From NCBI RefSeq assembly GCF_030013595.1, contig NZ_CP122768.1: a stretch of 64,000 bases of DNA. One strand, written 5' to 3'. This DNA is from Escherichia coli. GTDB taxonomy: Bacteria > Pseudomonadota > Gammaproteobacteria > Enterobacterales > Enterobacteriaceae. The notes beneath the pieces are model-generated. The model did not search any database. It was given only the letters and a program-made list of their open reading frames with translations, and had not been told where the DNA came from. This document shows, piece after piece, positions 5,950-43,265 of this stretch (its first letter is position 1; each line of letters begins with the position of its first letter). The position numbers and the translations under genes are program-made.

Positions 5950-6408
5950 GTGTCTCAGCTTTGTCCCTGTGGTAGTGCTGTCGAGTATAGCCTATGTTGC
6001 CACCCTTATGTGTCTGGTGAAAAGGTTGCACCTGATCCAGAACATCTCATGCGTTCGCGTTACTGCGCTTTTGTGATGAAAGACGCAGATTATTTAATAA
6101 AGACCTGGCATCCATCTTGTGGAGCGGCGGCGTTACGTGCCGAATTGATTGCCGGATTTGCGCATACTGAATGGTTGGGATTGACCGTATTTGAACATTG
6201 TTGGCAGGACGTCGACAATATCGGATTTGTCAGTTTTGTTGCGCGATTTACCGAAGGTGGCAAAACAGGTGCAATCATTGAACGTTCGCGATTTTTGAAA
6301 GAAAACGGTCAATGGTACTATATTGACGGTACACGTCCGCAGTTTGGCCGCAACGATCCCTGCCCTTGTGGTTCAGGTAAAAAATTTAAAAAGTGCTGCG
6401 GCCAATAA
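5950..6408 (+). CDS. ychJ: UPF0225 / SEC-C motif protein YchJ
   Basis: Cys-rich SEC-C-like motifs at both ends (CPCGS...[13 protein letters not shown]); GTG start at 5950 gives 152 aa; ORF-track start at 5929 is a 7-codon extension. Confidence 0.85.
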
Positions 6409-6457
6409 TGGTTGACGGTACGGTTTAGCAAACACTCTCAACAAGGTTTTTCCAGCA

Positions 6458-7300
6458 ATGCATTCACTCCAACGTAAAGTTCTGCGTACTATTTGTCCGG
6501 ACCAAAAAGGTCTGATCGCACGTATTACCAATATTTGCTACAAGCACGAGTTAAATATCGTACAGAACAATGAATTTGTTGATCACCGTACCGGGCGCTT
6601 TTTTATGCGCACGGAACTGGAAGGAATTTTTAATGATTCCACCCTGCTGGCGGATCTCGACAGCGCATTGCCAGAAGGCTCCGTACGTGAGCTGAATCCT
6701 GCTGGTCGTCGCCGGATAGTGATTCTGGTCACTAAAGAGGCGCATTGCCTTGGCGATTTGTTGATGAAAGCCAATTACGGCGGCCTGGATGTCGAAATCG
6801 CGGCAGTTATTGGTAACCACGATACTTTACGTTCTCTGGTTGAGCGTTTCGATATTCCGTTTGAGCTGGTAAGTCATGAAGGATTAAGCCGCAACGAGCA
6901 CGATCAAAAGATGGCGGATGCCATTGATGCTTATCAGCCTGACTACGTGGTGCTGGCGAAGTATATGCGGGTATTAACGCCAGAATTTGTGGCACGCTTC
7001 CCGAATAAGATCATCAATATTCACCATTCATTCCTGCCAGCGTTTATCGGCGCACGTCCTTATCACCAGGCCTATGAACGTGGCGTGAAGATTATTGGCG
7101 CAACCGCTCACTATGTGAATGACAATCTGGACGAAGGTCCAATCATCATGCAGGACGTTATTCATGTCGATCATACCTACACAGCTGAAGATATGATGCG
7201 CGCAGGTCGTGACGTCGAGAAAAACGTCTTAAGTCGCGCACTCTACAAAGTACTGGCGCAGCGCGTCTTTGTTTACGGTAATCGGACGATTATTCTTTAA
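6458..7300 (+). CDS. purU: Formyltetrahydrofolate deformylase
   Basis: 280 aa ORF; N-terminal ACT-like domain plus formyltransferase core (HHSFLPAF motif). Confidence 0.95.
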   Translation: MHSLQRKVLRTICPDQKGLIARITNICYKHELNIVQNNEFVDHRTGRFFMRTELEGIFNDSTLLADLDSALPEGSVRELNPAGRRRIVILVTKEAHCLGDLLMKANYGGLDVEIAAVIGNHDTLRSLVERFDIPFELVSHEGLSRNEHDQKMADAIDAYQPDYVVLAKYMRVLTPEFVARFPNKIINIHHSFLPAFIGARPYHQAYERGVKIIGATAHYVNDNLDEGPIIMQDVIHVDHTYTAEDMMRAGRDVEKNVLSRALYKVLAQRVFVYGNRTIIL

Positions 7301-7381
7301 TCGCCAGCAAAAATAACTGGTTACCTTTAATCCGTTACGGATGAAAATTACGCAACCAGTTCATTTTTCTCAACGTAACAC

Positions 7382-7409
7382 TTTACAGCGGCGCGTCATT
7401 TGATATGAT
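7382..7409 (+). promoter_or_regulatory. tyrT promoter (-35 TTTACA, 16-bp spacer, -10 TATGAT, GC-rich discriminator GCGCCCCGC)
   Basis: Sequence ctTTTACAgcggcgcgtcatttgaTATGATgcgccccgc matches the classic stringently controlled tyrT promoter, about 50 bp upstream of the first tRNA. Confidence 0.8.
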
Positions 7410-7459
7410 GCGCCCCGCTCCCCGATAAGGGAGCAGGCCAGTAAAAAGCATTACCCCGT

Positions 7460-7544
<85 letters not shown>

Positions 7545-7579
7545 TCTCAAGCATTACCTCAAAATTTGAATTACCCCGT

Positions 7580-7648
<69 letters not shown>

Positions 7649-7664
<16 letters not shown>

Positions 7665-8205
7665 TCACTTTCAAAAGTCCGTGAACTCTCAAACGAATCC
7701 GCGATTAAATATTCTGCCCATGCGGGGAAGGATGAGAAGCTTCGACCAAGGTTCGACTCGAGCGCCAGCGAGAGAGCGTGGCCGCAGGCAACGACCCGAA
7801 GGGCGAAGCGCGCAGCGCTGAGTAATCCTTCCCCCACCACCATCACTTTCAAAAGTCCCTGAACTCTCAAACGAATCCGTAATTAAATATTCTGCCCAAG
7901 CGGGGAAGGATGAGAAGCTTCGACCAAGGTTCGACTCGAGCGCCAGCGAGAGAGCGTTGCCGCAGGCAACGACCCGAAGGGCGAAGCGCGCAGCGCTGAG
8001 TAATCCTTCCCCCACCACCATCACTTTTCAAAAGTCCGTGAACTCTCAAACGAATCCGCAATTAAATATTCTGCCCATGCGGGGAAGGATGAGAAGCTTC
8101 GACCAAGGTGCGACTCGAGCGCCAGCGAGAAAGCGTTGCCGCAGGCAACGACCCGAAGGGTGAAGCGCGCAGCGCTGAGTAATCCTTCCCCCACCACCAT
8201 CACTT
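7649..8205 (+). repeat. Three and a bit tandem copies of a 178-bp repeat at the 3' end of the tyrT-tyrV operon (rtT/tpr region)
   Basis: Unit starts at 7649, 7827, 8005 and partial at 8184, each beginning with the tRNA 3'-end-like ccttcccccaccaccatcac; units differ by a few substitutions. Confidence 0.9.
7732..7821 (+). CDS. tpr: Protamine-like small protein Tpr (29 aa) encoded inside first 178-bp repeat
   Basis: ATG 7732 to TGA 7819-7821 encodes [29 protein letters not shown], Arg-rich; matches my recollection of the 29-aa Tpr; paralogous ORFs in repeats 2 and 3. Confidence 0.35.
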
Positions 8206-8286
8206 CCTGTAAATACTCAAAACCTGTTACTCCGAGCTAATTCTACCCAATGGCACCGCGTTTACCGGACCTACAATATCCTCCCC

Positions 8287-8318
8287 TGTAGGTCGGATAA
8301 GCGAAGCGCATCCGACAA
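8287..8318. repeat. REP (repetitive extragenic palindromic) element
   Basis: tgtaggtcggataagcg-aagc-gcatccgacaa imperfect palindrome of the REP type between repeat array and narI. Confidence 0.45.
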
Positions 8319-8339
8319 CTCACCCCGTACCGTGCCCAT

Positions 8340-8364
8340 AAAAAAACCCCGCCGAAGCGGGGTC
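8340..8364 (-). terminator. Rho-independent terminator of narGHJI
   Basis: Minus-strand reading gaccccgcttcggcggggttttttt: GC stem with ttcg loop and T7 run 20 bp after narI stop. Confidence 0.75.
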
Positions 8365-8383
8365 TATGCAAACTAAAATTCGC

Positions 8384-9061
8384 TTAGTGACGAGCGCGCA
8401 CCAGCTGATACTTACGTGTCAGATACTCCACCGGTACGCTCCAGATGTGCACCAGACGTGAGAACGGGAACAGCAAGAATAACGTCATCCCCAGCACCAG
8501 GTGCAGACGGAAGATAAACGCCACACCATCAAGGTGTTGAGAAGCGCCACCGTGGAAGGTCACTACCGACTGCGCCCAGCCAACCAGTTTCATCATCTCG
8601 CTACCGTCCATATGCTGGGCGGAGAACGGAATGGTCAGCAAGCCCAGAGCGCACTGGATAACCAGCAGAGACAGGATCAGGATATCCGCTCCGGTAGTCG
8701 TTGCACGCACGCGTGGGCTGAACAGACGACGTTTCAGCAACAGCACGCCGCCAATCAGACACAGCACGCCGCTGGCACCACCAGCAAACATCGCCATTTT
8801 CTGTTTCACTTCAATCGGCAGCCAGGCTTCATACATCCAGTGCGGCGTCAGCATACCGAAGAAGTGACCAACAAAAATCCCCAGAATACCGATATGGAAC
8901 AGGTTCGACGCCAGGTTCATCCCTTTGCGATCCAGCATCTGGCTGGACGCCGCGCGCCAGGTGTACTGCCCGTAGTCATAACGCAGCCAGCTACCAATCA
9001 GGAAGACCGCCCCGGCTATGTACGGGTAGATATCAAAGAAGAACATATTCAGGAATTGCAT
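8384..9061 (-). CDS. narI: Respiratory nitrate reductase gamma subunit (cytochrome b)
   Basis: 225 aa polytopic membrane ORF, last gene of narGHJI. Confidence 0.96.
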
Positions 9062-9771: not shown

Positions 9772-11306
9772 GGGTGCGGCTCCGTTTTGCTGGTTACGTC
9801 GATGGCATCGATACGGCGGCTGTTGAACAGATTGAATTTGGTATCTGAACCGTGGCAGCCATCACCAAAGGTAAAGCCGCAGCCATTTTTCTCCGGGAAG
9901 GCTTCCCGCGCCAGTTCACGATGACTGCTCGGCACCACAAAGCGATCTTCGTAGTTAGCAATCGCCAGATAACGGTACATCTCCTGTGCCTGGGCTTCGG
10001 TCAGACCGACCTCTTCCAGCGCACGGGTATCGCCTTTACCGTCAACGGTTTCAGCACGTTTGTAATGACGCATCGCCAGCATACGTTTCAGCGCGCGCAG
10101 TACTGGTTTGGTATCACCGGCGGTCAGCAGATTCGCCAGATACTGTACCGGAATACGCAGACTTTCGACGTCTGGCAGAATGCCGTTGCTGCCCAGTTCA
10201 CCCGCATCTGCCGCAGACTGAATCGGCGACAGAGGCGGCACGTACCAGACCATCGGCAGTGTGCGATATTCCGGATGCAGCGGCAGCGCCAGTTTCCATT
10301 CCATCGCCATTTTATAAACCGGCGACTGCTGTGCGGCTTCAATAACGCTCAGCGGAATACCGTCTTTAATTGCCTGCTCGATGACTTTCGGATCGTTCGG
10401 ATCGAGGAACACCTCCAGCTGACGCTGGTAGAGATCTTTCTCGTTCTCGGTGCTGGCTGCACGTTCAATGGCGTCCGCATCGTACAGCAGCACGCCGAGA
10501 TAACGGATACGACCGACACAGGTTTCAGAGCACACCGTCGGCTGACCCGCTTCAATACGCGGATAGCAGAAGATGCACTTCTCAGACTTACCGCTCTTCC
10601 AGTTGAAGTAGATTTTTTTGTACGGGCATCCGGTGATGCACATACGCCAGCCACGGCATTTATCCTGGTCGATCAGGACGATGCCATCTTCTTCACGCTT
10701 GTAAATCGCACCGCTCGGGCAGGTCGCCACACATGCCGGGTTCAGGCAGTGTTCGCACAGGCGCGGCAAATACATCATGAAGGTGTTTTCGAACTGGCTA
10801 TACATCGCCTTCTGGATGTTGTCGAAGTTCTTGTCTTTCGCCAGCTTGTCAAACTCACCGCCCAGGTCATCTTCCCAGTTCGGCCCTTTTTCGATTTTCG
10901 CCATACGTTCGCCGGTAATCAGCGAACGCGGACGGGCAATCGGCTGCGATTTGCTGCCTTCCGGCGCGGTATGCAGGTTCTGATAATCAAAATCGAACGG
11001 CTCGTAATAATCGTCGATACCCGGCAGATGCGGGTTAGCAAAGATTTTACCCAGCAGCATGGCGCGGTTACCCATGCGCGGCTGCAGTTTGCCGTTGATT
11101 TTACGGATCCAGCCGCCTTTGTATTTTTCCTGGTTTTCCCAGTCAGTCGGGAAGCCCTGGCCCGGCTTGGTTTCCACGTTGTTGAACCACGCGTATTCCA
11201 CGCCTTCGCGGCTGGTCCAGACGTTTTTACAGGTAACTGAACAGGTGTGGCAGCCGATGCACTTATCGAGATTCAGCACCATGCCGACTTGTGAACGAAT
11301 TTTCAT
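9768..11306 (-). CDS. narH: Respiratory nitrate reductase beta subunit (Fe-S)
   Basis: 512 aa ORF with multiple ferredoxin-type Cys clusters (CIGCHTCSVTC, CEHCLNPACVATCP, CRGWRMCITGCPYKK). Confidence 0.97.
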   Translation of the reverse strand: MKIRSQVGMVLNLDKCIGCHTCSVTCKNVWTSREGVEYAWFNNVETKPGQGFPTDWENQEKYKGGWIRKINGKLQPRMGNRAMLLGKIFANPHLPGIDDYYEPFDFDYQNLHTAPEGSKSQPIARPRSLITGERMAKIEKGPNWEDDLGGEFDKLAKDKNFDNIQKAMYSQFENTFMMYLPRLCEHCLNPACVATCPSGAIYKREEDGIVLIDQDKCRGWRMCITGCPYKKIYFNWKSGKSEKCIFCYPRIEAGQPTVCSETCVGRIRYLGVLLYDADAIERAASTENEKDLYQRQLEVFLDPNDPKVIEQAIKDGIPLSVIEAAQQSPVYKMAMEWKLALPLHPEYRTLPMVWYVPPLSPIQSAADAGELGSNGILPDVESLRIPVQYLANLLTAGDTKPVLRALKRMLAMRHYKRAETVDGKGDTRALEEVGLTEAQAQEMYRYLAIANYEDRFVVPSSHRELAREAFPEKNGCGFTFGDGCHGSDTKFNLFNSRRIDAIDVTSKTEPHP

Positions 11307-14300
11307 TTTACGCTCTCCTGTACCTGGTCATTGCCTTCGCCATCTAACCAGTCAATGTTCTTCATCTTACGCACTACAACAAACTCATCGCGGTTAGAAC
11401 CTACGGTGCCGTAGTAGTTAAAGCCGTATGCCAGATGGGCATAGCCGCCGATCATATGCGTCGGTTTCGGCGTGATACGGGTGACCGAGTTATGGATACC
11501 ACCACGCTGTTGGGTAATTTCCGAACCAGGCAGGTTAACGATACGTTCCTGCGCGTGGTACATCATGGTCATCCCTGCCGGAACACGCTGGCTGACAACC
11601 GCACGGGCAGTCAGAGCACCGTTGCGGTTGAAGACTTCAATCCAGTCGTTATCGGCGATACCCAGCTCTTTGGCATCGGCTTCACTCAGCCAGACCACCG
11701 GACCACCGCGACCTAAAGTCAGCATCAGCAGGTTGTCGCTGTAGGTGGAGTGGATACCCCACTTCTGGTGCGGCGTCAGGAAGTTGAGCGCTTTTTCCGG
11801 GTTGCCGTTGGATTTCTGGCCTATCACTTCTTTCACCGAACGGGTGTCGATCGGCGGACGGTAAACCAGCAAGCTTTCACCGAAATCACGCATCCATTGG
11901 TGATCCTGATACAGCTGCTGACGGCCAGAGAGCGTACGCCACGGGATCAGCTCGTGAACGTTGGTGTAACCGGCGTTGTAAGAAACGTGTTCATCTTCAA
12001 GGCCAGACCAGGTCGGGCTGGAGATGATTTTGCGCGGCTGTGCCTGAATATCGCGGAAGCGAATCTTCTCGTCTTCTTTATTCAGCGCCAGATGCGTATG
12101 GTCACGACCGGTAAACTCGCTCAGGGCAGCCCAGGCTTTCACGGCTACCTGACCGTTGGTTTCCGGTGCCAGCGTCAGGATCATCTCTGCCGCATCAATT
12201 GCGGTATTGAGCATCGGCTGACCTTTTGCCGGACCTTCCGCTTTGGTGTAGTTGAGCTTACGCAGCAGATCCATCTCGCTCTGGGTGTTCCAGGCAATCC
12301 CTTTACCGCCGTTACCGATTTTCTCCATCAGCGGGCCGATAGAGGTAAAGCGTTCGTAAGTTGCCGGATAATCGCGCTCTACGACCATAATGTGCGGTGC
12401 AGTTTTACCTGGGATCAGGTCGCATTCGCCTTTTTTCCAGTCTTTCACATCCAGCGGCTGCGCCAGTTCAGCGGCAGAGTCGTGCTGGATAGGCAGCGTG
12501 ACGATGTCAGTTTCTTTACCCAGATGACCAACGCACACTTCGGAGAATTTCTTCGCGATGGCTTTGTAGATTTCCCAGTCGCTTTTCGCTTCCCAGGCCG
12601 GATCGACCGCCGCAGACAGCGGGTGAATAAACGGATGCATATCCGAAGTATTCATGTCGTCTTTTTCGTACCAGGTCGCCGTCGGCAAAATGATGTCGGA
12701 ATAGAGACAGGTGCTCGACAGACGGAAGTCCAGCGTCACCACCAGATCCAGCTTGCCTTCCAGACCGTTGTCCTGCCAGTCCACTTCTTCCGGCTTCACG
12801 CCGCCCTGCTGACCCAGGTCTTTACCCTGGATACCGTGCTCCGTCCCCAGCAGGTACTTGAGCATAAACTCATGACCTTTACCGGAAGAACCGAGCAGGT
12901 TAGAGCGCCAGATGAACAGGTTACGCGGGTGGTTTTTACCGTTTTCTGGTTGTTCTGCCGCAAAACGGATAGAACCCTCTTTCAGGGATTTCACGGTGTA
13001 ATCCACCGGATTCATGCCCGCTTTTTCCGCTTCGCGAGCGATAGTCAGCGGGTTAGTGCCTAACTGCGGCGCAGACGGCAGCCAGCCCATACGTTCTGCA
13101 CGGACGTTAAAGTCGATCAGATGTCCGGTATAACGGGATTTATCCGCCATCGGTGACAGCAACTCTTCCGCCGTGACGGTTTCATAACGCCACTGGCTGG
13201 AGTGGTTATAGAAATAAGAAGTGCTGTTCATGTGACGCGCCGGACGCTGCCAGTCAAGGGCAAACGCCAGCGGCTGCCAGCCGGTTTGCGGACGCAGTTT
13301 TTCCTGACCTACATAGTGCGCCCAGCCGCCCCCGCTCTGACCGACACAGCCGCAGAAAATCAGCATGTTGATCAGACCACGATAGTTCATATCGAGGTGA
13401 TACCAGTGGTTCAGCCCCGCACCGACGATAATCATTGAACGACCGTGGGTTTTATCAGCGTTATCGGCAAATTCACGGGCGATGCGAATAATCTGGCTGC
13501 GAGAAACGCCGGTAATCTGCTCGGCCCAGGCAGGGGTGTAAGCTTTCACATCGTCATAGCTGGTTGCACAATTAACGTCGTTCAGGCCACGTTCCAGACC
13601 GTAGTTTGCCAGCGTCAGATCATAAACGGTGGTCACCAGGGCGGTGCTGCCATCAGCCAGTTGCAGGCGTTTCACCGGCAGTTTGTGCAGCAGCACGTTT
13701 TCCAGTTCCACTTTGTTGAAGTGTTCAGTACCGTCGCCACCAAAGTACGGGAAGCCAACCTCAGCGATCTCATCCTGGCTACCCAGCAGGCTTAGTTGCA
13801 GCTCGGTTTCTTCGCCAGTTTTGCCGTCGCGCTGTTCAAGATTCCATTTGCCCTTCTCGCCCCAGCGGAAGCCGATAGAACCGTTCGGCGCAACCATTTC
13901 GCCATTGGTATTAAAGGCGACAGTTTTCCATTCCGGATTGTTTTCCTGGCCCAGCGCATCCACCAGATCAGCAGCGCGCAGCATACGACCCGCAGCGTAG
14001 TAACCGTCGCGTTCTTCCAGCATCACCAGCATCGGCATGTCGGTGTAGCGACGCACATAGTCGGTGAAATACTGGCTTGGGTTGTCGAGGTGGAATTCAC
14101 GCAGCATTACGTGGCCCATCGCCAGCGCCATTGCCGCATCGGTGCCCTGTTTCGGTGCCAGCCACAGATCGCACAGTTTGGCGATTTCAGCGTAGTCTGG
14201 CGTGACGGCAACAGTTTTGGTGCCTTTGTAACGCACTTCAGTAAAGAAGTGAGCATCCGGGGTACGCGTCTGCGGCACGTTTGAACCCCAGGCGATGATG

Positions 14301-15046
14301 TAGCTGGAGTTGTACCAGTCAGCAGATTCCGGTACGTCAGTCTGCTCGCCCCAGGTTTGCGGAGACGCAGGAGGCAGGTCGCAGTACCAGTCGTAGAAGC
14401 TTAAGCAAGTACCGCCAAGCAGCGAGAGATAGCGCGCACCCGACGCGTAAGAAACCATCGACATTGCCGGAATTGGCGAGAAGCCAGCGACGCGGTCCGG
14501 GCCGTAGTTTTTGATGGTGTAAACGTTAGAGGCGGCGATCAGTTCGTTCACTTCCTGCCAGGAAGAACGAACAAAACCACCGCGTCCACGCGCCTGCTTA
14601 AAGCTTTTCGCTTTATCGGCGTCTTCAATGATAGAAGCCCATGCCTCAACCGGATCGCTATGCAGCGCCTTCGCTTCACGCCACATTTTCATCAGGCGTT
14701 TGCGCATCATTGGGTATTTCAGGCGGTTGGCGCTGTAAAGATACCAGGAGTAGCTGGCACCGCGCGGGCAGCCGCGAGGTTCATGGTTTGGCAGGTCCGG
14801 GCGAGTACGCGGATAGTCAGTCTGCTGGGTTTCCCAGGTCACCAGACCGTTTTTGACGTAGATTTTCCAGCTGCAGGAGCCGGTGCAGTTTACCCCGTGG
14901 GTAGAGCGGACGATTTTGTCATGCTGCCAACGCTGGCGATATCCATCCTCCCAGTCACGGTTGGTATTGAGAAGCTGGCCATGCCCATCGGCAAAGGTTT
15001 CACCCTTCTGTTTGAAGTAGCGAAACCGGTCCAGGAATTTACTCAT
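11303..15046 (-). CDS. narG: Respiratory nitrate reductase alpha subunit (molybdopterin)
   Basis: 1247 aa ORF; N-terminal Fe-S motif HGVNCTGSCSWKIYVKNG, molybdopterin oxidoreductase core; 4-nt overlap with narH. Confidence 0.97.
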   Translation of the reverse strand: MSKFLDRFRYFKQKGETFADGHGQLLNTNRDWEDGYRQRWQHDKIVRSTHGVNCTGSCSWKIYVKNGLVTWETQQTDYPRTRPDLPNHEPRGCPRGASYSWYLYSANRLKYPMMRKRLMKMWREAKALHSDPVEAWASIIEDADKAKSFKQARGRGGFVRSSWQEVNELIAASNVYTIKNYGPDRVAGFSPIPAMSMVSYASGARYLSLLGGTCLSFYDWYCDLPPASPQTWGEQTDVPESADWYNSSYIIAWGSNVPQTRTPDAHFFTEVRYKGTKTVAVTPDYAEIAKLCDLWLAPKQGTDAAMALAMGHVMLREFHLDNPSQYFTDYVRRYTDMPMLVMLEERDGYYAAGRMLRAADLVDALGQENNPEWKTVAFNTNGEMVAPNGSIGFRWGEKGKWNLEQRDGKTGEETELQLSLLGSQDEIAEVGFPYFGGDGTEHFNKVELENVLLHKLPVKRLQLADGSTALVTTVYDLTLANYGLERGLNDVNCATSYDDVKAYTPAWAEQITGVSRSQIIRIAREFADNADKTHGRSMIIVGAGLNHWYHLDMNYRGLINMLIFCGCVGQSGGGWAHYVGQEKLRPQTGWQPLAFALDWQRPARHMNSTSYFYNHSSQWRYETVTAEELLSPMADKSRYTGHLIDFNVRAERMGWLPSAPQLGTNPLTIAREAEKAGMNPVDYTVKSLKEGSIRFAAEQPENGKNHPRNLFIWRSNLLGSSGKGHEFMLKYLLGTEHGIQGKDLGQQGGVKPEEVDWQDNGLEGKLDLVVTLDFRLSSTCLYSDIILPTATWYEKDDMNTSDMHPFIHPLSAAVDPAWEAKSDWEIYKAIAKKFSEVCVGHLGKETDIVTLPIQHDSAAELAQPLDVKDWKKGECDLIPGKTAPHIMVVERDYPATYERFTSIGPLMEKIGNGGKGIAWNTQSEMDLLRKLNYTKAEGPAKGQPMLNTAIDAAEMILTLAPETNGQVAVKAWAALSEFTGRDHTHLALNKEDEKIRFRDIQAQPRKIISSPTWSGLEDEHVSYNAGYTNVHELIPWRTLSGRQQLYQDHQWMRDFGESLLVYRPPIDTRSVKEVIGQKSNGNPEKALNFLTPHQKWGIHSTYSDNLLMLTLGRGGPVVWLSEADAKELGIADNDWIEVFNRNGALTARAVVSQRVPAGMTMMYHAQERIVNLPGSEITQQRGGIHNSVTRITPKPTHMIGGYAHLAYGFNYYGTVGSNRDEFVVVRKMKNIDWLDGEGNDQVQESVK

Positions 15047-36442: not shown

Positions 36443-37534
36443 ATGGGATTCAAATGCGGTATCGTCGGTTTGCCCAACGTCGGGAAATCTACCCTGTTCA
36501 ACGCGCTGACCAAAGCCGGTATTGAAGCGGCCAACTTTCCATTCTGCACCATTGAGCCGAACACAGGCGTCGTACCAATGCCTGACCCTCGCCTGGATCA
36601 ACTGGCTGAAATCGTAAAACCGCAGCGTACGCTTCCCACGACCATGGAATTTGTCGATATCGCCGGTCTGGTAAAAGGCGCATCGAAAGGCGAAGGTCTG
36701 GGTAACCAGTTCCTGACTAACATCCGTGAAACCGAAGCGATCGGTCACGTTGTTCGCTGCTTTGAAAATGACAACATCATTCACGTTTCCGGCAAAGTTA
36801 ACCCGGCGGATGATATTGAAGTTATCAACACCGAACTGGCGCTGGCGGACCTCGACACCTGCGAACGTGCGATTCATCGCGTACAGAAGAAAGCCAAAGG
36901 TGGCGATAAAGACGCGAAAGCCGAGCTGGCGGTACTGGAAAAATGCCTGCCGCAGCTGGAAAACGCAGGTATGCTGCGCGCGCTGGATTTAAGCGCTGAA
37001 GAGAAAGCGGCTATTCGTTACCTGAGCTTCCTGACGCTGAAACCAACAATGTACATCGCCAACGTCAACGAAGACGGTTTTGAAAACAACCCGTATCTTG
37101 ACCAGGTGCGTGAAATCGCGGCGAAAGAAGGTTCTGTTGTGGTTCCGGTTTGTGCTGCTGTTGAAGCAGACATTGCCGAACTGGACGACGAAGAACGTGA
37201 CGAGTTTATGCAGGAGCTTGGGCTGGAAGAGCCGGGCCTGAACCGTGTGATCCGTGCCGGTTATAAGCTGCTGAACCTGCAAACTTACTTCACCGCTGGG
37301 GTGAAAGAAGTACGTGCATGGACCATTCCGGTTGGTGCAACCGCGCCGCAGGCCGCTGGCAAAATCCATACTGATTTTGAAAAAGGCTTTATCCGTGCAC
37401 AAACTATTTCGTTCGAAGATTTCATCACTTACAAAGGTGAACAAGGCGCGAAAGAAGCAGGCAAAATGCGTGCAGAAGGCAAAGATTACATCGTTAAAGA
37501 TGGCGATGTAATGAACTTCCTGTTCAATGTCTAA
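36443..37534 (+). CDS. ychF: Ribosome-binding ATPase YchF (Obg-family GTPase)
   Basis: 363 aa; P-loop [15 protein letters not shown] domain at C-terminus. Confidence 0.97.
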
Positions 37535-37593
37535 TTAATTTGTTGTCTCATGAGGTTTCGCTAAATCTCATGAAGAGCGCAAAAGTATATAAA

Positions 37594-37620
37594 ATCCACG
37601 CAATTGCGTGGATTTTTCAT
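37594..37620 (+). terminator. Rho-independent terminator of pth-ychF
   Basis: atccacgc-aatt-gcgtggat followed by T5. Confidence 0.7.
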
Positions 37621-37779
37621 TTCACCGAGTCCTAACCATTCTTATAACATCCTACACTTTTGTGCTTATTGCCTATAGTGAACCACCAGAATAATTAAAG
37701 ACATAAGTGTTCAGATGAGGGATATCTCATTAGCAATGAGATAACGTAAGTTTGTGTTCCACTGCACATCAGACACCTT

Positions 37780-38034
37780 TTACAGCTGATCAATATTGAT
37801 CACGCTCCAATATGCTGGCGAGAAAAGGACTTGCCTGAAGGGCAATATCCAGCAGATAAAGCCCCCGAATAACGTGATTACGTGCGATCCTGGCAAGATG
37901 AAAATGATAACCAGTAGCACGATAATAACGATAAGCCAGAAAATCCATTGATCAAAAATGAATATCGATGTTTTTTGCTTTTTCTTATTAGTAATGCAAA
38001 AATGGCTCATATTGTTTTTGTTATGCAGATACAT
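37780..38034 (-). CDS. Hypothetical small membrane protein (doubtful ORF in AT-rich intergenic region)
   Basis: 84-85 aa ORF with two hydrophobic segments in a very AT-rich region; no clear SD; may be non-coding. Confidence 0.2.
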   Translation of the reverse strand: MYLHNKNNMSHFCITNKKKQKTSIFIFDQWIFWLIVIIVLLVIIFILPGSHVITLFGGFICWILPFRQVLFSPAYWSVINIDQL

Positions 38035-38378
38035 CAAGCGAAAATCCCATAACTAATTAGGATTATTACCAAAAATATTCACCAAATTATTTAACCGCTG
38101 TTTGTTGTAATGTTTTTGTCATATTCATAGTAACGAATTGGAATAAGTAACGACAACTTAGGGAATAACTCGATCTAAACTCACCTTTGTAAGGAGGATG
38201 TTAAATATATATTAATTCCTGTGTTCCTGATTTTGCCCGGTAATAGAGAATTATTCTCAGAGCAGCTCATCATGATTGCACCATACAAATATCATGATGA
38301 TAAGAGGATATTATGCATTGACTTAAACAAAATGACAAAATCCATAGACCCATAGCCTGGGTACTATATAGGAGTGGT

Positions 38379-41246
38379 ATGGGCATCAAACAACACAATG
38401 GGAATACCAAAGCCGATCGTCTCGCTGAATTAAAAATCCGTTCGCCCTCAATTCAACTGATAAAATATGGCGCTATTGGTTTGAATGCAATTATCTTTTC
38501 CCCCCTGCTGATAGCTGCTGATTTAGGAAGTCAAAATGGCACCAATATTACTATTAGTGATGGTGACAGAATTACAGGAGATACCGCCGATCCATCAGGA
38601 AACCTCTATGGTGTAATGACCCCAGCAGGAAACACGCCTGGCAATATCAACCTGGGTAATGATGTCACCGTCAATGTCAACGACGCCTCTGGATATGCAA
38701 AGGGAATCATTATTCAGGGCAATAACAGCTCCCTGACAGCTAACCGACTTACAGTAGATGTTGTTGGTCAAACCTCTGCCATCGGCATTAATTTAATTGG
38801 TGACTATACCCATGCTGACTTAGGCACAGGCAGCACCATTAAGAGTAACGATGACGGCATCATTATTGGACATAGCTCAACACTAACAGCCACTCAATTC
38901 ACCATTGAAAACTCGAACGGTATAGGCCTAACCATCAATGACTATGGCACCAGTGTCGATCTTGGAAGCGGAAGTAAAATCAAGACCGATGGAAGTACAG
39001 GTGTTTATATCGGTGGTCTCAACGGCAATAACGCCAATGGTGCTGCGCGTTTTACGGCGACAGACCTGACAATCGATGTTCAGGGCTATAGCGCCATGGG
39101 AATAAACGTACAGAAAAACTCTGTTGTCGATCTCGGAACAAACAGTTCCATTACAACCAATGGCGATAATGCACACGGCCTCTGGAGCTTTGGCCAGGTG
39201 AGCGCGAATGCACTCACTGTTGATGTAACTGGAGCCGCGGCAAATGGCGTCGAAGTTCGTGGTGGTACAACCACTATCGGTGCTGATAGCCATATTTCTT
39301 CCGCGCAGGGCGGTGGCCTCGTAACCAGTGGTTCAGACGCGACAATCAATTTTTCTGGCACGGCAGCGCAACGAAACAGCATCTTTTCCAGCGGTTCTTA
39401 TGGTGCCTCAGCCCAGACGGCAACGGCTGTTATCAACATGCAAAATACCGATATTACGGTTGATCGTAATGGCAGTCTGGCGCTGGGTTTGTGGGCGCTC
39501 AGCGGCGGTAGAATAACCGGAGACAGTTTGGCTATCACCGGCGCGGCAGGAGCCAGGGGAATTTATGCTATGACCAACAGCCAGATCGACCTCACGAGCG
39601 ATCTGGTCATTGATATGAGTACACCCGACCAGATGGCCATTGCAACGCAACATGACGATGGTTATGCCGCCAGCCGCATCAACGCCTCGGGTCGTATGCT
39701 TATCAACGGTAGCGTTCTTTCCAAAGGTGGGCTAATCAATCTGGATATGCACCCCGGGTCGGTTTGGACAGGTTCTTCCCTCAGCGATAATGTCAATGGC
39801 GGGAAACTGGACGTTGCAATGAATAACAGCGTCTGGAACGTAATAAGTAATTCTAATCTCGACACGCTGGCGCTGAGCCATTCAACTGTCGATTTTGCCA
39901 GCCACACGTCAACTGCCGGCACATTTACCACATTAAACGTAGAGAACCTGAGCGGTAACAGTACCTTTATTATGCGTGCTGATGTTGTTGGCGAGGGTAA
40001 TGGCGTTAATAATAAAGGGGATTTATTGAATATCAGCGGGAGTAGTGCTGGTAATCACGTATTGGCTATCCGTAACCAGAGCAGCGAGGCCACAACGGGA
40101 AATGAAGTTCTGACTGTGGTAAAAACCACTGACGGCGCGGCCTCGTTCAGCGCGTCTTCTCAGGTTGAGTTGGGAGGATATCTGTATGATGTGCGTAAAA
40201 ATGGCACTAACTGGGAGCTTTATGCTTCCGGGACAATTCCGGCGCCGACTCCTAATCCTGAGCCCACACCAGCTCCCGCTCAGCCCCCCATAGTCAACCC
40301 CGATCCTACGCCTAACCCCACTCCCACACCTAAACCCACCACGACCGCAGATGCTGGCGGCAATTATCTCAATGTCGGTTACTTATTAAACTATGTTGAA
40401 AACCGTACGCTGATGCAACGGATGGGTGACCTGCGAAATCAGAGTAAAGACGGAAATATCTGGCTGCGCAGTTATGGGGGAAGTCTGGACTCCTTCGCCA
40501 GTGGCAAACTGAGCGGCTTTGACATGGGTTACAGCGGTATCCAGTTTGGTGGGGATAAACGTCTCTCTGATGTAATGCCGTTGTATGTCGGTCTGTATAT
40601 TGGCTCAACACATGCATCGCCGGACTATAGCGGAGGCGACGGTACCGCACGTTCAGACTACATGGGAATGTACGCCAGTTACATGGCACACAGCGGTTTT
40701 TACAGCGATCTCGTTGTAAAAGCATCACGCCAGAAAAATAGTTTCCACGTACTGGACAGTCAGAACAACGGCGTTAATGCCAACGGCACTGCGAATGGAA
40801 TGAGTATCGCCCTGGAAGCCGGGCAGAGGTTCAACCTGACCCCTACTGGTTATGGGTTCTATATAGAGCCGCAAACCCAGCTCACATACAGCCACCAGAA
40901 TGAGATGGCTATGAAGGCGAGTAATGGCCTCAATATACATCTGAATCACTACGAATCGCTGCTGGGGCGTGCCAGCATGATACTGGGATATGACATCACC
41001 GCAGGCAACAGCCAGCTGAATGTCTATGTGAAGACTGGCGCTATCCGCGAGTTTTCAGGGGATACCGAATATCTGTTGAACAACTCCCGGGAGAAGTACA
41101 GTTTCAAAGGTAATGGCTGGAATAACGGCGTGGGAGTCAGTGCACAGTATAACAAACAGCACACATTCTATCTCGAAGCGGATTACACGCAGGGTAACCT
41201 CTTTGATCAGAAGCAAGTCAACGGAGGATATCGCTTCAGCTTTTAA
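38379..41246 (+). CDS. ycgV: Autotransporter adhesin-like protein YcgV
   Basis: 955 aa; Gly/Thr/Asn-rich repetitive passenger, Pro-rich linker (PAPTPNPEPTPAPAQPPIVNPDPTPNPTPTPKPTT) and C-terminal beta-barrel ending in aromatic residue (RFSF). Confidence 0.9.
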   Translation: MGIKQHNGNTKADRLAELKIRSPSIQLIKYGAIGLNAIIFSPLLIAADLGSQNGTNITISDGDRITGDTADPSGNLYGVMTPAGNTPGNINLGNDVTVNVNDASGYAKGIIIQGNNSSLTANRLTVDVVGQTSAIGINLIGDYTHADLGTGSTIKSNDDGIIIGHSSTLTATQFTIENSNGIGLTINDYGTSVDLGSGSKIKTDGSTGVYIGGLNGNNANGAARFTATDLTIDVQGYSAMGINVQKNSVVDLGTNSSITTNGDNAHGLWSFGQVSANALTVDVTGAAANGVEVRGGTTTIGADSHISSAQGGGLVTSGSDATINFSGTAAQRNSIFSSGSYGASAQTATAVINMQNTDITVDRNGSLALGLWALSGGRITGDSLAITGAAGARGIYAMTNSQIDLTSDLVIDMSTPDQMAIATQHDDGYAASRINASGRMLINGSVLSKGGLINLDMHPGSVWTGSSLSDNVNGGKLDVAMNNSVWNVISNSNLDTLALSHSTVDFASHTSTAGTFTTLNVENLSGNSTFIMRADVVGEGNGVNNKGDLLNISGSSAGNHVLAIRNQSSEATTGNEVLTVVKTTDGAASFSASSQVELGGYLYDVRKNGTNWELYASGTIPAPTPNPEPTPAPAQPPIVNPDPTPNPTPTPKPTTTADAGGNYLNVGYLLNYVENRTLMQRMGDLRNQSKDGNIWLRSYGGSLDSFASGKLSGFDMGYSGIQFGGDKRLSDVMPLYVGLYIGSTHASPDYSGGDGTARSDYMGMYASYMAHSGFYSDLVVKASRQKNSFHVLDSQNNGVNANGTANGMSIALEAGQRFNLTPTGYGFYIEPQTQLTYSHQNEMAMKASNGLNIHLNHYESLLGRASMILGYDITAGNSQLNVYVKTGAIREFSGDTEYLLNNSREKYSFKGNGWNNGVGVSAQYNKQHTFYLEADYTQGNLFDQKQVNGGYRFSF

Positions 41247-41345
41247 GTGGGGGATAGACAAGCCCTTAAACGATGCTGAAAATTGTTAGCGTGCGCCGGA
41301 ATGAAATACAGATCACTCTGATGTATCATAAATCGTTTCTGTCTT

Positions 41346-43265
41346 TCATACCCGGCGCTTAAACTGCCCTGCATCAATGCCATGTTGCTTCATTTTCCGC
41401 CACAGCGTAGTGCGGCCGATTCCAAGTAAAGCCGACATTTCCTGAATGCGACCGCCTGTGACCTGGGCTGCGTTAATAATTGCCTCTTTTTCAACTTCCG
41501 CAAATGACAGACTGGTGGAAAGGCGGGTGGCGCTGACATCATCTGTCGCCTGCTCGGTAAACAGATGTTCAGGTAAATCACTGACGCGAATGCGCCCGTT
41601 ATCACTACTCAGAGCAAGATTCTCGATGACGCTGTAAATTTCAAAATCGTTGCCTGGCCATGCACAAGAAACCAGGCGAGCGAGGGCATCGTCGTCAATT
41701 TTCAGACGCGTAGAGAAGCGTTTTTCAAGACTGCGTAATTTGTTATTCACCAGCGCCGGAATGCTGCCACGCCGCATACGCAGAGGCGGGATGGTAATTT
41801 CAAATGCATGCAGCGCGTAATACAGCTGGCGACTAAAGCGATTTTGTTCCACCAGCATTGCCAGGTCCGCGGTCGTTGTGGCAATCACTTTGACATCAAT
41901 GGGTATTAAACGCCGCGCATCCAGTCGCGTGATAACACCCTGCTTGATAACCTGAAGCAAAGCAGACTGTAACTCCACCGCCAGATATTCAATCTTTTCA
42001 AGAAACAGCGTGCCGCCGTGCGCCAGTTCCAGCCGACTCAGACGGCCATTTTCATTATCCGTGCGATCGCCACCAATAAATTCTTCCGCCAGCGCCGCAT
42101 CACCATATAACTCACAATTGACGGCAATATAAGGCCCCGCTGCACGCTCGCTTTCATTATGAATTGCCTGACTTAGCAGTGCCTTGCCCACGCCCTCTTC
42201 TCCACAAAGCAGGACAGGAAAGCTACTACGCGCCGCCTGGCGACCAAAATGAATCAAGCGGCGGGTTTGCGGATCGTCCTGTGGCATATGAGCGAAAGTA
42301 TGGCTGACTTTTCCTAATTGACTGGTCATTAACTGCCGCATCTGTTCCACAGGATGGAGCAACAAAATAAAGCTGGTTCCCTGCGTTTCTATTATCGGTT
42401 TAAGGGTTATCACCGCATCAATAAACTGGTGCTGGCTTTCAAAGGTTGCTTCTACGTGTTTGAGCGGATGTGCCTGTTTTATTGCTTGTTGCAATACGGC
42501 GGGTAACGTTAAGAGTTCAGTGATTGCCCTTCCCTGACTTGCCGTCGCGTCAAGGCGCAAGGCCCGCGCCGCCTGGGCGTTGATAAATTGCAAATTACCC
42601 TGCTCGTCCCAGCTAATCACGCCATCATCCATACTTTCTAACAGGGCATTAAGTTGATTTAAATGACGGTTAGTTTCAGCGAGCAAACTGTCCGTCAGCA
42701 GTAAATTACCGACCTCGCGGGCGATTGCTAACGTCAACGGCAAATCAGCTGCGGTAGTTTGCTCAACCGGACACGCCAGCGCTATTGTTCCCGTCAATCG
42801 GCCCTTGCTGTCAAACAACGGCGTTGCACAAAAGGCCCAGTTCCAGAGTGCCTGTTTGAAATGTTGATCGGCCATCGTTTTCACGGCCTGACCAGAGATA
42901 GCCGCTAACGATAGCGCACAAGTACCAATAATTCCCTCGGCGCAATACGTGCCGTCATTGAATCCCAGTGTACTTAGTTGCTGCAAGGTTTGCGGATCGC
43001 CATTACGGCTGAGAATGCAGGCGGTTTCATCGAGGATAAACAACGCACACTCTCGCGGTGCCATATATTCCCAGGCATCTTCCAGCGCAGCCTGCCCGAG
43101 CGTCAGCATCGCTTTCTTACGCCGATAAATAGACGCAAATGTCACGCCCTGGGCCTGGTGTGGTACGTTCCATGTCTCCCGTTTCATCAGCTTATTGCAT
43201 CTCTCCCAGGAGGTTGCAATTAAGGGAGATATGCCCCGACCATCGTTGTTAAAAGCGCCACTCAT
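41346..43265 (-). CDS. dhaR: Sigma-70-dependent transcriptional regulator of dha operon (GAF-PAS-AAA+-HTH)
   Basis: Start at MSGAFNNDGRG gives 639 aa; AAA+ motif GEEGVGKALLSQAIH and C-terminal Fis-type HTH; divergent from dhaK. Confidence 0.93.
   Translation of the reverse strand: MSGAFNNDGRGISPLIATSWERCNKLMKRETWNVPHQAQGVTFASIYRRKKAMLTLGQAALEDAWEYMAPRECALFILDETACILSRNGDPQTLQQLSTLGFNDGTYCAEGIIGTCALSLAAISGQAVKTMADQHFKQALWNWAFCATPLFDSKGRLTGTIALACPVEQTTAADLPLTLAIAREVGNLLLTDSLLAETNRHLNQLNALLESMDDGVISWDEQGNLQFINAQAARALRLDATASQGRAITELLTLPAVLQQAIKQAHPLKHVEATFESQHQFIDAVITLKPIIETQGTSFILLLHPVEQMRQLMTSQLGKVSHTFAHMPQDDPQTRRLIHFGRQAARSSFPVLLCGEEGVGKALLSQAIHNESERAAGPYIAVNCELYGDAALAEEFIGGDRTDNENGRLSRLELAHGGTLFLEKIEYLAVELQSALLQVIKQGVITRLDARRLIPIDVKVIATTTADLAMLVEQNRFSRQLYYALHAFEITIPPLRMRRGSIPALVNNKLRSLEKRFSTRLKIDDDALARLVSCAWPGNDFEIYSVIENLALSSDNGRIRVSDLPEHLFTEQATDDVSATRLSTSLSFAEVEKEAIINAAQVTGGRIQEMSALLGIGRTTLWRKMKQHGIDAGQFKRRV

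Follow-up and report, generated by a model that had tools for sequence, protein, structure and literature searches.

A composite AT-rich spacer of three parts, most probably non-coding, separates ychF from the adhesin gene ycgV in Escherichia coli

In Escherichia coli, the intergenic spacer between ychF and the autotransporter adhesin gene ycgV was found to be a composite of three parts: a terminator and arm adjoining ychF, an orphan filler, and the upstream region of ycgV. The analysis was carried out on a stretch of 64,000 nucleotides of contig NZ_CP122768.1 (hereafter the window, to which coordinates refer unless a strain or locus is named). Taken as a whole, the spacer is very probably a non-coding region consisting of an island arm, a filler and an H-NS-bound ycgV regulatory region, and the small open reading frame (ORF) that crosses it is most likely accidental. 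An original prediction, made from the letters of the sequence, had proposed an H-NS-bound spacer upstream of a silenced, horizontally acquired adhesin gene, containing an ORF that could be either a small membrane protein or AT-rich noise. The part on H-NS and the acquired adhesin is supported and noise is the favoured option for the ORF; the composite make-up and the island arm at ychF had been missed.

The ychF reading frame ends at 37534 and the ATG of ycgV lies at 38379, so that the spacer measures 844 bp (37535-38378), within the chromosomal gene order dauA-ychH-pth-ychF-spacer-ycgV-dhaR. The description of this interval as long and very AT-rich proved accurate: with a GC content of 0.354, compared to 0.508 for the window, 0.512 for ychF and 0.495 for ycgV, it is the most AT-rich 844-bp stretch within the 64 kb, and the equally AT-rich 844-bp windows (less than 0.1% of those in the 64 kb) each overlap it. 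A/T tracts of at least 4 nucleotides occur at 22.5 per kb in the spacer versus 9.7 per kb in the window, above the expectation from mononucleotide shuffles (12.4 +/- 3.0; P = 0.027). The AT run that had been quoted as an example corresponds to 37971-38005, inside the AT-richest zone of the spacer (approximately 37922-38221, core 37935-38135, 72% AT). Of 5426 complete E. coli genomes, 5422 were matched by region 37400-38500 in a megablast search, with 100% identity in a single genome, and 4092 (75%) have the arrangement of spacer plus ycgV. In strain CUWW10 (NZ_CP182145.1) an IS1-like transposase is annotated together with ychF and ycgV under the match to this region, which is split into three pieces and suggests an IS1 insertion within the spacer. 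Contigs 97-98% identical to the E. coli locus were also encountered in an Actinomycetes MAG (L021) and a Nocardioides malaquae assembly (L022), where they are probably contamination.

The part adjoining ychF (37535-37631, plus strand) comprises the ychF 3' UTR and terminator and is homologous to the integrase-proximal (attL) arm of islands that target ychF. With a pi of 0.0097, this 97-bp segment varies less than any other part of the spacer; it is approximately 90% identical to the arm of E. coli islands (L005-L007, L017), 88.8% identical to the arm of a similar Salmonella island (L018) adjoining ychF, and unrelated to the 'empty' site of B2 strains. Within it lies a perfect 13+13 palindromic hairpin flanked by A/T runs (37591-37616), a bidirectional intrinsic terminator for ychF; the weak Leu_leader hits returned on both strands by Rfam at a permissive E-value fall on this hairpin only. 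The last 13 nucleotides of ychF (GTTCAATGTCTAA, 37522-37534, plus strand) correspond to the att core of P4-type integrase islands and match the core GTTCAACGTCTAA at 12 of 13 positions. In strain 20AR0192 (L017, 1-40200) a 40-kb integrase-led island, flanked by a 13-bp direct repeat of GTTCAACGTCTAA, is located between ychF and a B2-type site. The island integrase is a P4-type tyrosine recombinase with the domains Arm-DNA-bind_3, Phage_int_M and Phage_integrase, and in some strains an integrase gene follows ychF at a distance of about 215 bp. The cargo of the ychF islands is variable and appears defence-like, including DEAD/DEAH helicases, AAA ATPases and a protein kinase with an FRG-domain protein.

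No trace of an integrase was detected in the spacer by tblastn with three island integrases, and a search for an att-like direct repeat flanking ycgV, or a second copy of the core, gave none; the spacer was therefore classified as an island remnant and not as an island. From these sequence matches we infer that the window carries the attL left by a P4-type island, the integrase and right end of which would since have been lost. More generally, comparison of the loci points to the ychF 3' end as a putative attachment site that P4-type islands use in both E. coli and Salmonella; in the literature searched, we found no description of a ychF attachment site in Enterobacteriaceae. A phage collection contained no match to the spacer, and matches labelled 'plasmid' were mislabelled chromosomal pieces, except for Salmonella and E. 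coli records that match the island arm only.

At the opposite end, 37941-38378 (plus strand) is the own upstream regulatory region of ycgV. It could be aligned to the region upstream of ycgV in Citrobacter sp. with 59% identity over approximately 400-460 columns, at a score of 45 versus 12 +/- 1.6 (maximum 18) in 200 shuffles, from which we conclude that about 440 bp of upstream DNA travels with ycgV. The ycgV orthologues, with 80% amino acid identity in Citrobacter sp. and 60% in Leminorella, reside in unrelated contexts and are likewise preceded by long, AT-rich regions (GC 0.41 in Citrobacter and 0.34 in Leminorella). In Leminorella grimontii (L020), the full-length orthologue (6001-8862) is followed downstream by two more ycgV-like segments (10963-12511 and 14093-14844), which share 68-69% nucleotide identity with the 3' part of ycgV. 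In E. coli, ycgV itself is often decayed, with annotations of a truncated gene in O157:H7 and strain 2018-05-2CC and of a frameshifted one in CUPS TF 6/1_01, which fits a dispensable, silenced gene. Between the arm and this upstream region, the filler (37632-37940) is found in E. coli only. Polymorphism within the spacer peaks here (pi 0.033-0.052). The filler lacks homology to the islands, the B2 site and the ycgV loci of Citrobacter or Leminorella, and holds the hydrophobic segments of the ORF, a 75-bp indel and a GATC palindrome.

The convergent genes ychF and dhaR enclose a stop-to-stop interval that differs between strains, being occupied by the spacer and ycgV, by an empty site or by islands. 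In B2 strains there are 409 unrelated bp with a 58-aa ORF and no ycgV, and compared to the window the whole interval from the ychF stop to the dhaR stop is replaced, not merely deleted. The 58-aa ORF of the B2-type site is His/Pro-rich with a lipoprotein-like signal (MKKTFTFSLLAIVFASLLSAC...; L004 6327-6503, L017 40359-40535), is annotated as hypothetical and has no Pfam match; since it is found only in E. coli, it is uninformative on the polarity of the empty site. The window is again homologous to B2 strains from 41353 onwards, a position a few bases within the dhaR 3' end (region 41247-41352), so the last dhaR codons may differ between ycgV-bearing and ycgV-less strains. The varied occupancy of this site among strains, the island arm and the scatter of ycgV orthologues over unrelated loci are in keeping with horizontal acquisition.

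We would reconstruct the order of insertion and deletion events as follows. A P4-type island may once have inserted at the last 13 nucleotides of ychF, leaving 37535-37631 as its attL arm; loss of the integrase and other island genes would then have left 37632-37940 as a fast-evolving orphan filler, and 37941-38378 would be the long, AT-rich stretch that precedes the horizontally acquired ycgV and belongs to it. Conversely, spacer and ycgV could be ancestral E. coli DNA that was lost by phylogroups F, G and B2, with the shared 97 bp being the native ychF 3' UTR. One paper indeed reads the absence of ycgV from these phylogroups as loss, the spacer-ycgV arrangement prevails in three quarters of the complete genomes and an integrase fragment is not detectable in the spacer. 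At the right end of the 20AR0192 island, however, the 13-bp ychF core is directly followed by B2-type sequence and the 58-aa ORF, which implies that the site entered was B2-like and that the 97-bp arm came in with the element. Together with the occurrence of the same arm beside an integrase at ychF in Salmonella, the dispersed loci of the ycgV orthologues in other genera and the complete replacement of the B2 interval, this makes an ancestral spacer an unlikely explanation, and acquisition through the ychF site is preferred.

The K-12 promoter island 1255333_301 was placed using a coordinate offset to NC_000913.3 that we take to be +777, and by blastn its counterpart in the window is 37922-38221 (95.3% identity). 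This island, the K-12 ycgV-ychF intergenic region, is an entry among the 78 'promoter islands' of Panyukov and Ozoline (PMC3661553, Table 1), in which it carries the mark 'A', for H-NS binding in every ChIP study compared. One predictor there classes ycgV as foreign, and a promoter island is likewise listed for yfaL. An H-NS-bound AT-rich regulatory region upstream of ycgV is thus already described and catalogued for K-12, and this published record supports the earlier idea of an acquired, H-NS-silenced adhesin gene. An abnormal density of promoter-like sites was obtained with PlatProm in the published work (PMC3661553); our simple sigma-70 consensus scan, which uses a different algorithm, returned 2 promoter-like sites in the spacer versus 4.7 +/- 2.3 expected. 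Nor was the high-affinity H-NS motif TCGATAAATT enriched in the spacer.

Closer to the gene, 38253-38378 (plus strand) contains the proximal ycgV promoter and 5' UTR. Mapping of published primers showed this segment to be the 126-bp probe shifted in EMSA by YbdO, which represses ycgV in avian pathogenic E. coli (APEC) (PMC11681634). An AGGAG Shine-Dalgarno sequence (38371-38375) precedes the ycgV ATG at 38379, and the Shine-Dalgarno region is conserved in Citrobacter. In vitro, genomic SELEX with RNA polymerase holoenzyme carrying a minor sigma factor also gave a peak in the spacer (PMC5493296). In the mechanism that we propose, H-NS would polymerise on the AT-rich, A-tract-rich DNA with a core at approximately 37920-38220, this cover would keep ycgV cryptic, and local regulators of the YbdO type would act on the proximal 126 bp. 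For the window allele, which differs from K-12 by about 5% plus the 75-bp indel, H-NS occupancy and YbdO binding are predicted by analogy with the K-12 and APEC literature, and silencing may by the same analogy be the function of the spacer in this strain.

Two further sequence elements were observed in the spacer. The 3' end of the ORF contains, at 37787-37802 and some 590 bp upstream of ycgV, a perfect 16-bp palindrome, TGATCAATATTGATCA, with two Dam GATC sites. K-12 has an imperfect version (TGATCAAAATTGATCA), and a methylation study lists ycgV among the genes with differentially methylated GATC sites. A strong Shine-Dalgarno-like motif, AAGGAGG, abuts an ATG (38191-38200) that opens an ORF of only 5 codons, and is not conserved, because the A at 38195 is a G (AAGGGGG) in most other aligned strains.

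The minus-strand ORF of 84 codons (37780-38034; ATG 38034-38032, stop 37782-37780) starts in the ycgV-linked segment and runs across the junction into the filler; with a TTG start one codon upstream it would count 85 codons. Its main features were verified as originally described: the length, two hydrophobic segments with Kyte-Doolittle windows above 1.6 (a strong one at residues 22-57 with a core at about 24-47, and a weaker one at 50-66 with a core at about 52-66), and the lack of a Shine-Dalgarno core match of at least 4 nucleotides within 40 nucleotides upstream of the ATG. The length is within chance expectation, as ORFs of at least 84 codons arose in 13% of 3000 dinucleotide-preserving shuffles of the spacer, and the 67- and 59-codon forms found in other strains were matched or exceeded in 39% and 58% of such shuffles. 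A T at the second codon position specifies F, I, L, V or M in the genetic code; in codons 23-66 of the ORF the second base is a T in 66% of cases, and this richness in T accounts for the hydrophobicity and thereby for the 'helices'.

Scans of the 84/85-aa ORF against Pfam, NCBIfam and PHROG gave nothing above noise. A word-indexed search of 5.8 billion proteins yielded no relatives beyond E. coli and Shigella, and HMMER, run exhaustively on 1.84 billion representative proteins, likewise turned up E. coli and Shigella alleles but nothing more distant. The ATG and frame of the ORF are absent from the Citrobacter ycgV upstream region, where the indel lengths are not divisible by three. In the ychF islands, tblastn detected no match to the ORF. 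None of the RefSeq records examined, including the curated K-12 record NC_000913.3, carries an annotated feature under the spacer. Among the other reading frames, a plus-strand frame of 51 aa was considered as a decayed gene on account of a best PHROG hit of 22.6 bits (E = 2e-4) and rejected, because Pfam, NCBIfam and the search of 5.8 billion proteins gave E. coli copies only; apart from that hit, the PHROG scan of eight further spacer ORFs gave nothing above noise.

Comparison across the E. coli population shows that the frame is not maintained. The predicted-protein databases contain versions of 84, 81 (with a frameshifted tail), 77, 67 and 59 aa, some of them frameshifted in a poly-A run, and the allele forms could be explained by alignment of 11 strains. 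At 37833 (minus strand) the window has a G that makes codon 68 CAA, where most strains have an A that makes it TAA and limits the product to 67 aa. In addition, K-12 and about half of the strains lack a 75-bp segment (37815-37889) that is bounded by CTGGC microrepeats, and with it codons 49-73, i.e. the whole second hydrophobic segment. Alleles were counted by means of exact allele-specific sequences (32-mers for codon 68 and a 37-mer for the deletion junction). The CAA allele of the window, which allows up to 84 aa, occurs in 271 genomes, the TAA allele (67 aa) in 1789 and the K-12 type deletion (59 aa) in 1987, which adds up to 4047 of the 4092 genomes with the spacer. Strains HCP5S3_I2 and KE47 are among those with the 84-aa allele, and the K-12 form lies at NC_000913.3 1256297-1256476 on the plus strand. 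The two-helix protein is therefore a minority allele, present in at most 7% of these genomes (271/4092), and the second helix is truncated or deleted in 93% of them. Codons 1-48 are intact in all 11 aligned strains, and their pN/pS is approximately 1, at about 3% divergence and 6-8 substitutions only. Between the window and K-12 they differ by five nonsynonymous changes and one synonymous change (pN/pS 0.043 / 0.036). Four residues (L, P, H and S) alternate between strains at position 34, which lies inside the helix, and the nucleotide diversity of codons 1-48 (0.027) is no lower than that of the flanking non-coding DNA (0.022-0.052).

Most likely, the ORF is an accidental reading frame across the junction of filler and ycgV upstream region. 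Of the options left by the original prediction, AT-rich noise is favoured by the broken frame, the pN/pS, the chance-range length, the missing homologues and the missing Shine-Dalgarno sequence; a real two-helix membrane protein did not survive the comparison of frames between strains, with the second helix lost or truncated in the large majority of spacer-bearing genomes. A less demanding version would have the ORF encode a lineage-specific small membrane protein with the N-terminal 48 residues as its core and a tail giving 59, 67 or 84 aa, arisen de novo at the junction of two acquired segments and made when H-NS silencing is lifted. That these codons are open in every aligned strain and shared by most database alleles speaks for it, as do a KKKQK stretch followed by a strongly hydrophobic segment of 24 residues, a typical layout of small inner-membrane proteins, and the prediction of the ORF by gene callers in hundreds of assemblies. 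Upstream, the minus strand moreover offers a promoter-like site, TTGTCA-17-CATAAT (10/12 matches, 38338-38310), and downstream lies the bidirectional terminator. This promoter-like site, however, falls in H-NS-bound DNA, and the substitution pattern, with four different residues at position 34 and poly-A frameshift variants, the restriction of homologues to E. coli and Shigella, the loss of frame and ATG in Citrobacter, the length within chance and the lack of a RefSeq gene in the records examined, K-12 included, render such a protein highly improbable. We give a very slim chance to its most specific form, in which codons 1-48 would be a young, E. coli-specific single-pass membrane peptide born de novo at the filler/ycgV-upstream junction, with a tail to 59, 67 or 84 aa and expressed only on relief from H-NS; if true, this peptide would capture, in nature, the birth of a gene within a promoter island.

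The same hydrophobic ORF, minus-strand promoter-like site and bidirectional terminator could be read as parts of a functional non-coding RNA locus, such as a type I toxin-antitoxin pair centred on the ORF or a transcript that is divergent or antisense. Scarcely any probability can be attached to this, given that no Rfam family was matched at gathering score, the best hits (31 bits versus a threshold of 50) being the terminator hairpin and fstAT reaching E = 6.7, and that a local hairpin at 37719-37746 is broken by substitutions in most strains. The ORF, as the would-be toxin, is truncated or deleted in most genomes, and diversity is at least equal to that of neighbouring synonymous sites. An accidental frame in a non-coding, composite spacer thus remains the preferred reading.

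The locus is a textbook case of a cryptic, acquired adhesin gene preceded by AT-rich, H-NS-bound DNA, and the finding as originally stated matters little by itself. Of use are the putative attachment site at the ychF 3' end, which would explain where the ycgV module came from, and the ORF, which illustrates how convincing-looking 'two-helix membrane proteins', predicted in hundreds of assemblies, can arise from an AT-rich strand when T occupies the second codon positions.

Compared with known systems, the ORF resembles small inner-membrane proteins and type I toxins (Ldr, Hok, TisB, YohP-type) in its size, its basic N-terminus and its one very hydrophobic helix, but unlike these it has no Shine-Dalgarno sequence, conservation of length or sequence, antisense RNA family or homologues, and its substitutions are neutral. 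The spacer as such corresponds to the E. coli 'promoter islands' of Shavkunov, Panyukov and Ozoline (PMC3661553, PMC7054387), being the same locus, AT-rich and located beside a predicted foreign gene. Compared to the K-12 island, the window has 75 bp extra just outside the island and approximately 5% substitutions, and the published excess of promoter-like sites was not reproduced by a simple sigma-70 scan. In having a long AT-rich region before a normally silent autotransporter adhesin gene, the locus also fits xenogeneic silencing of cryptic adhesins by H-NS, known for the Ag43/flu relatives yfaL, ypjA and ycgV and for chaperone-usher fimbriae; in contrast to flu, no Dam/OxyR phase-variation switch is evident in the spacer, which contains 5 GATC sites versus about 3 by a rough composition-based estimate. 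Finally, with the P4-type tyrosine-integrase islands, which enter at the 3' end of a gene and replace its terminal sequence, the locus shares the 13-bp core at the ychF stop, the element-borne 3' UTR and terminator, the variable cargo and a site common to E. coli and Salmonella. It differs from them in that the target is a protein-coding gene instead of a tRNA or tmRNA gene, and in that the window retains the arm only, with no integrase, right-hand repeat or potential to excise.
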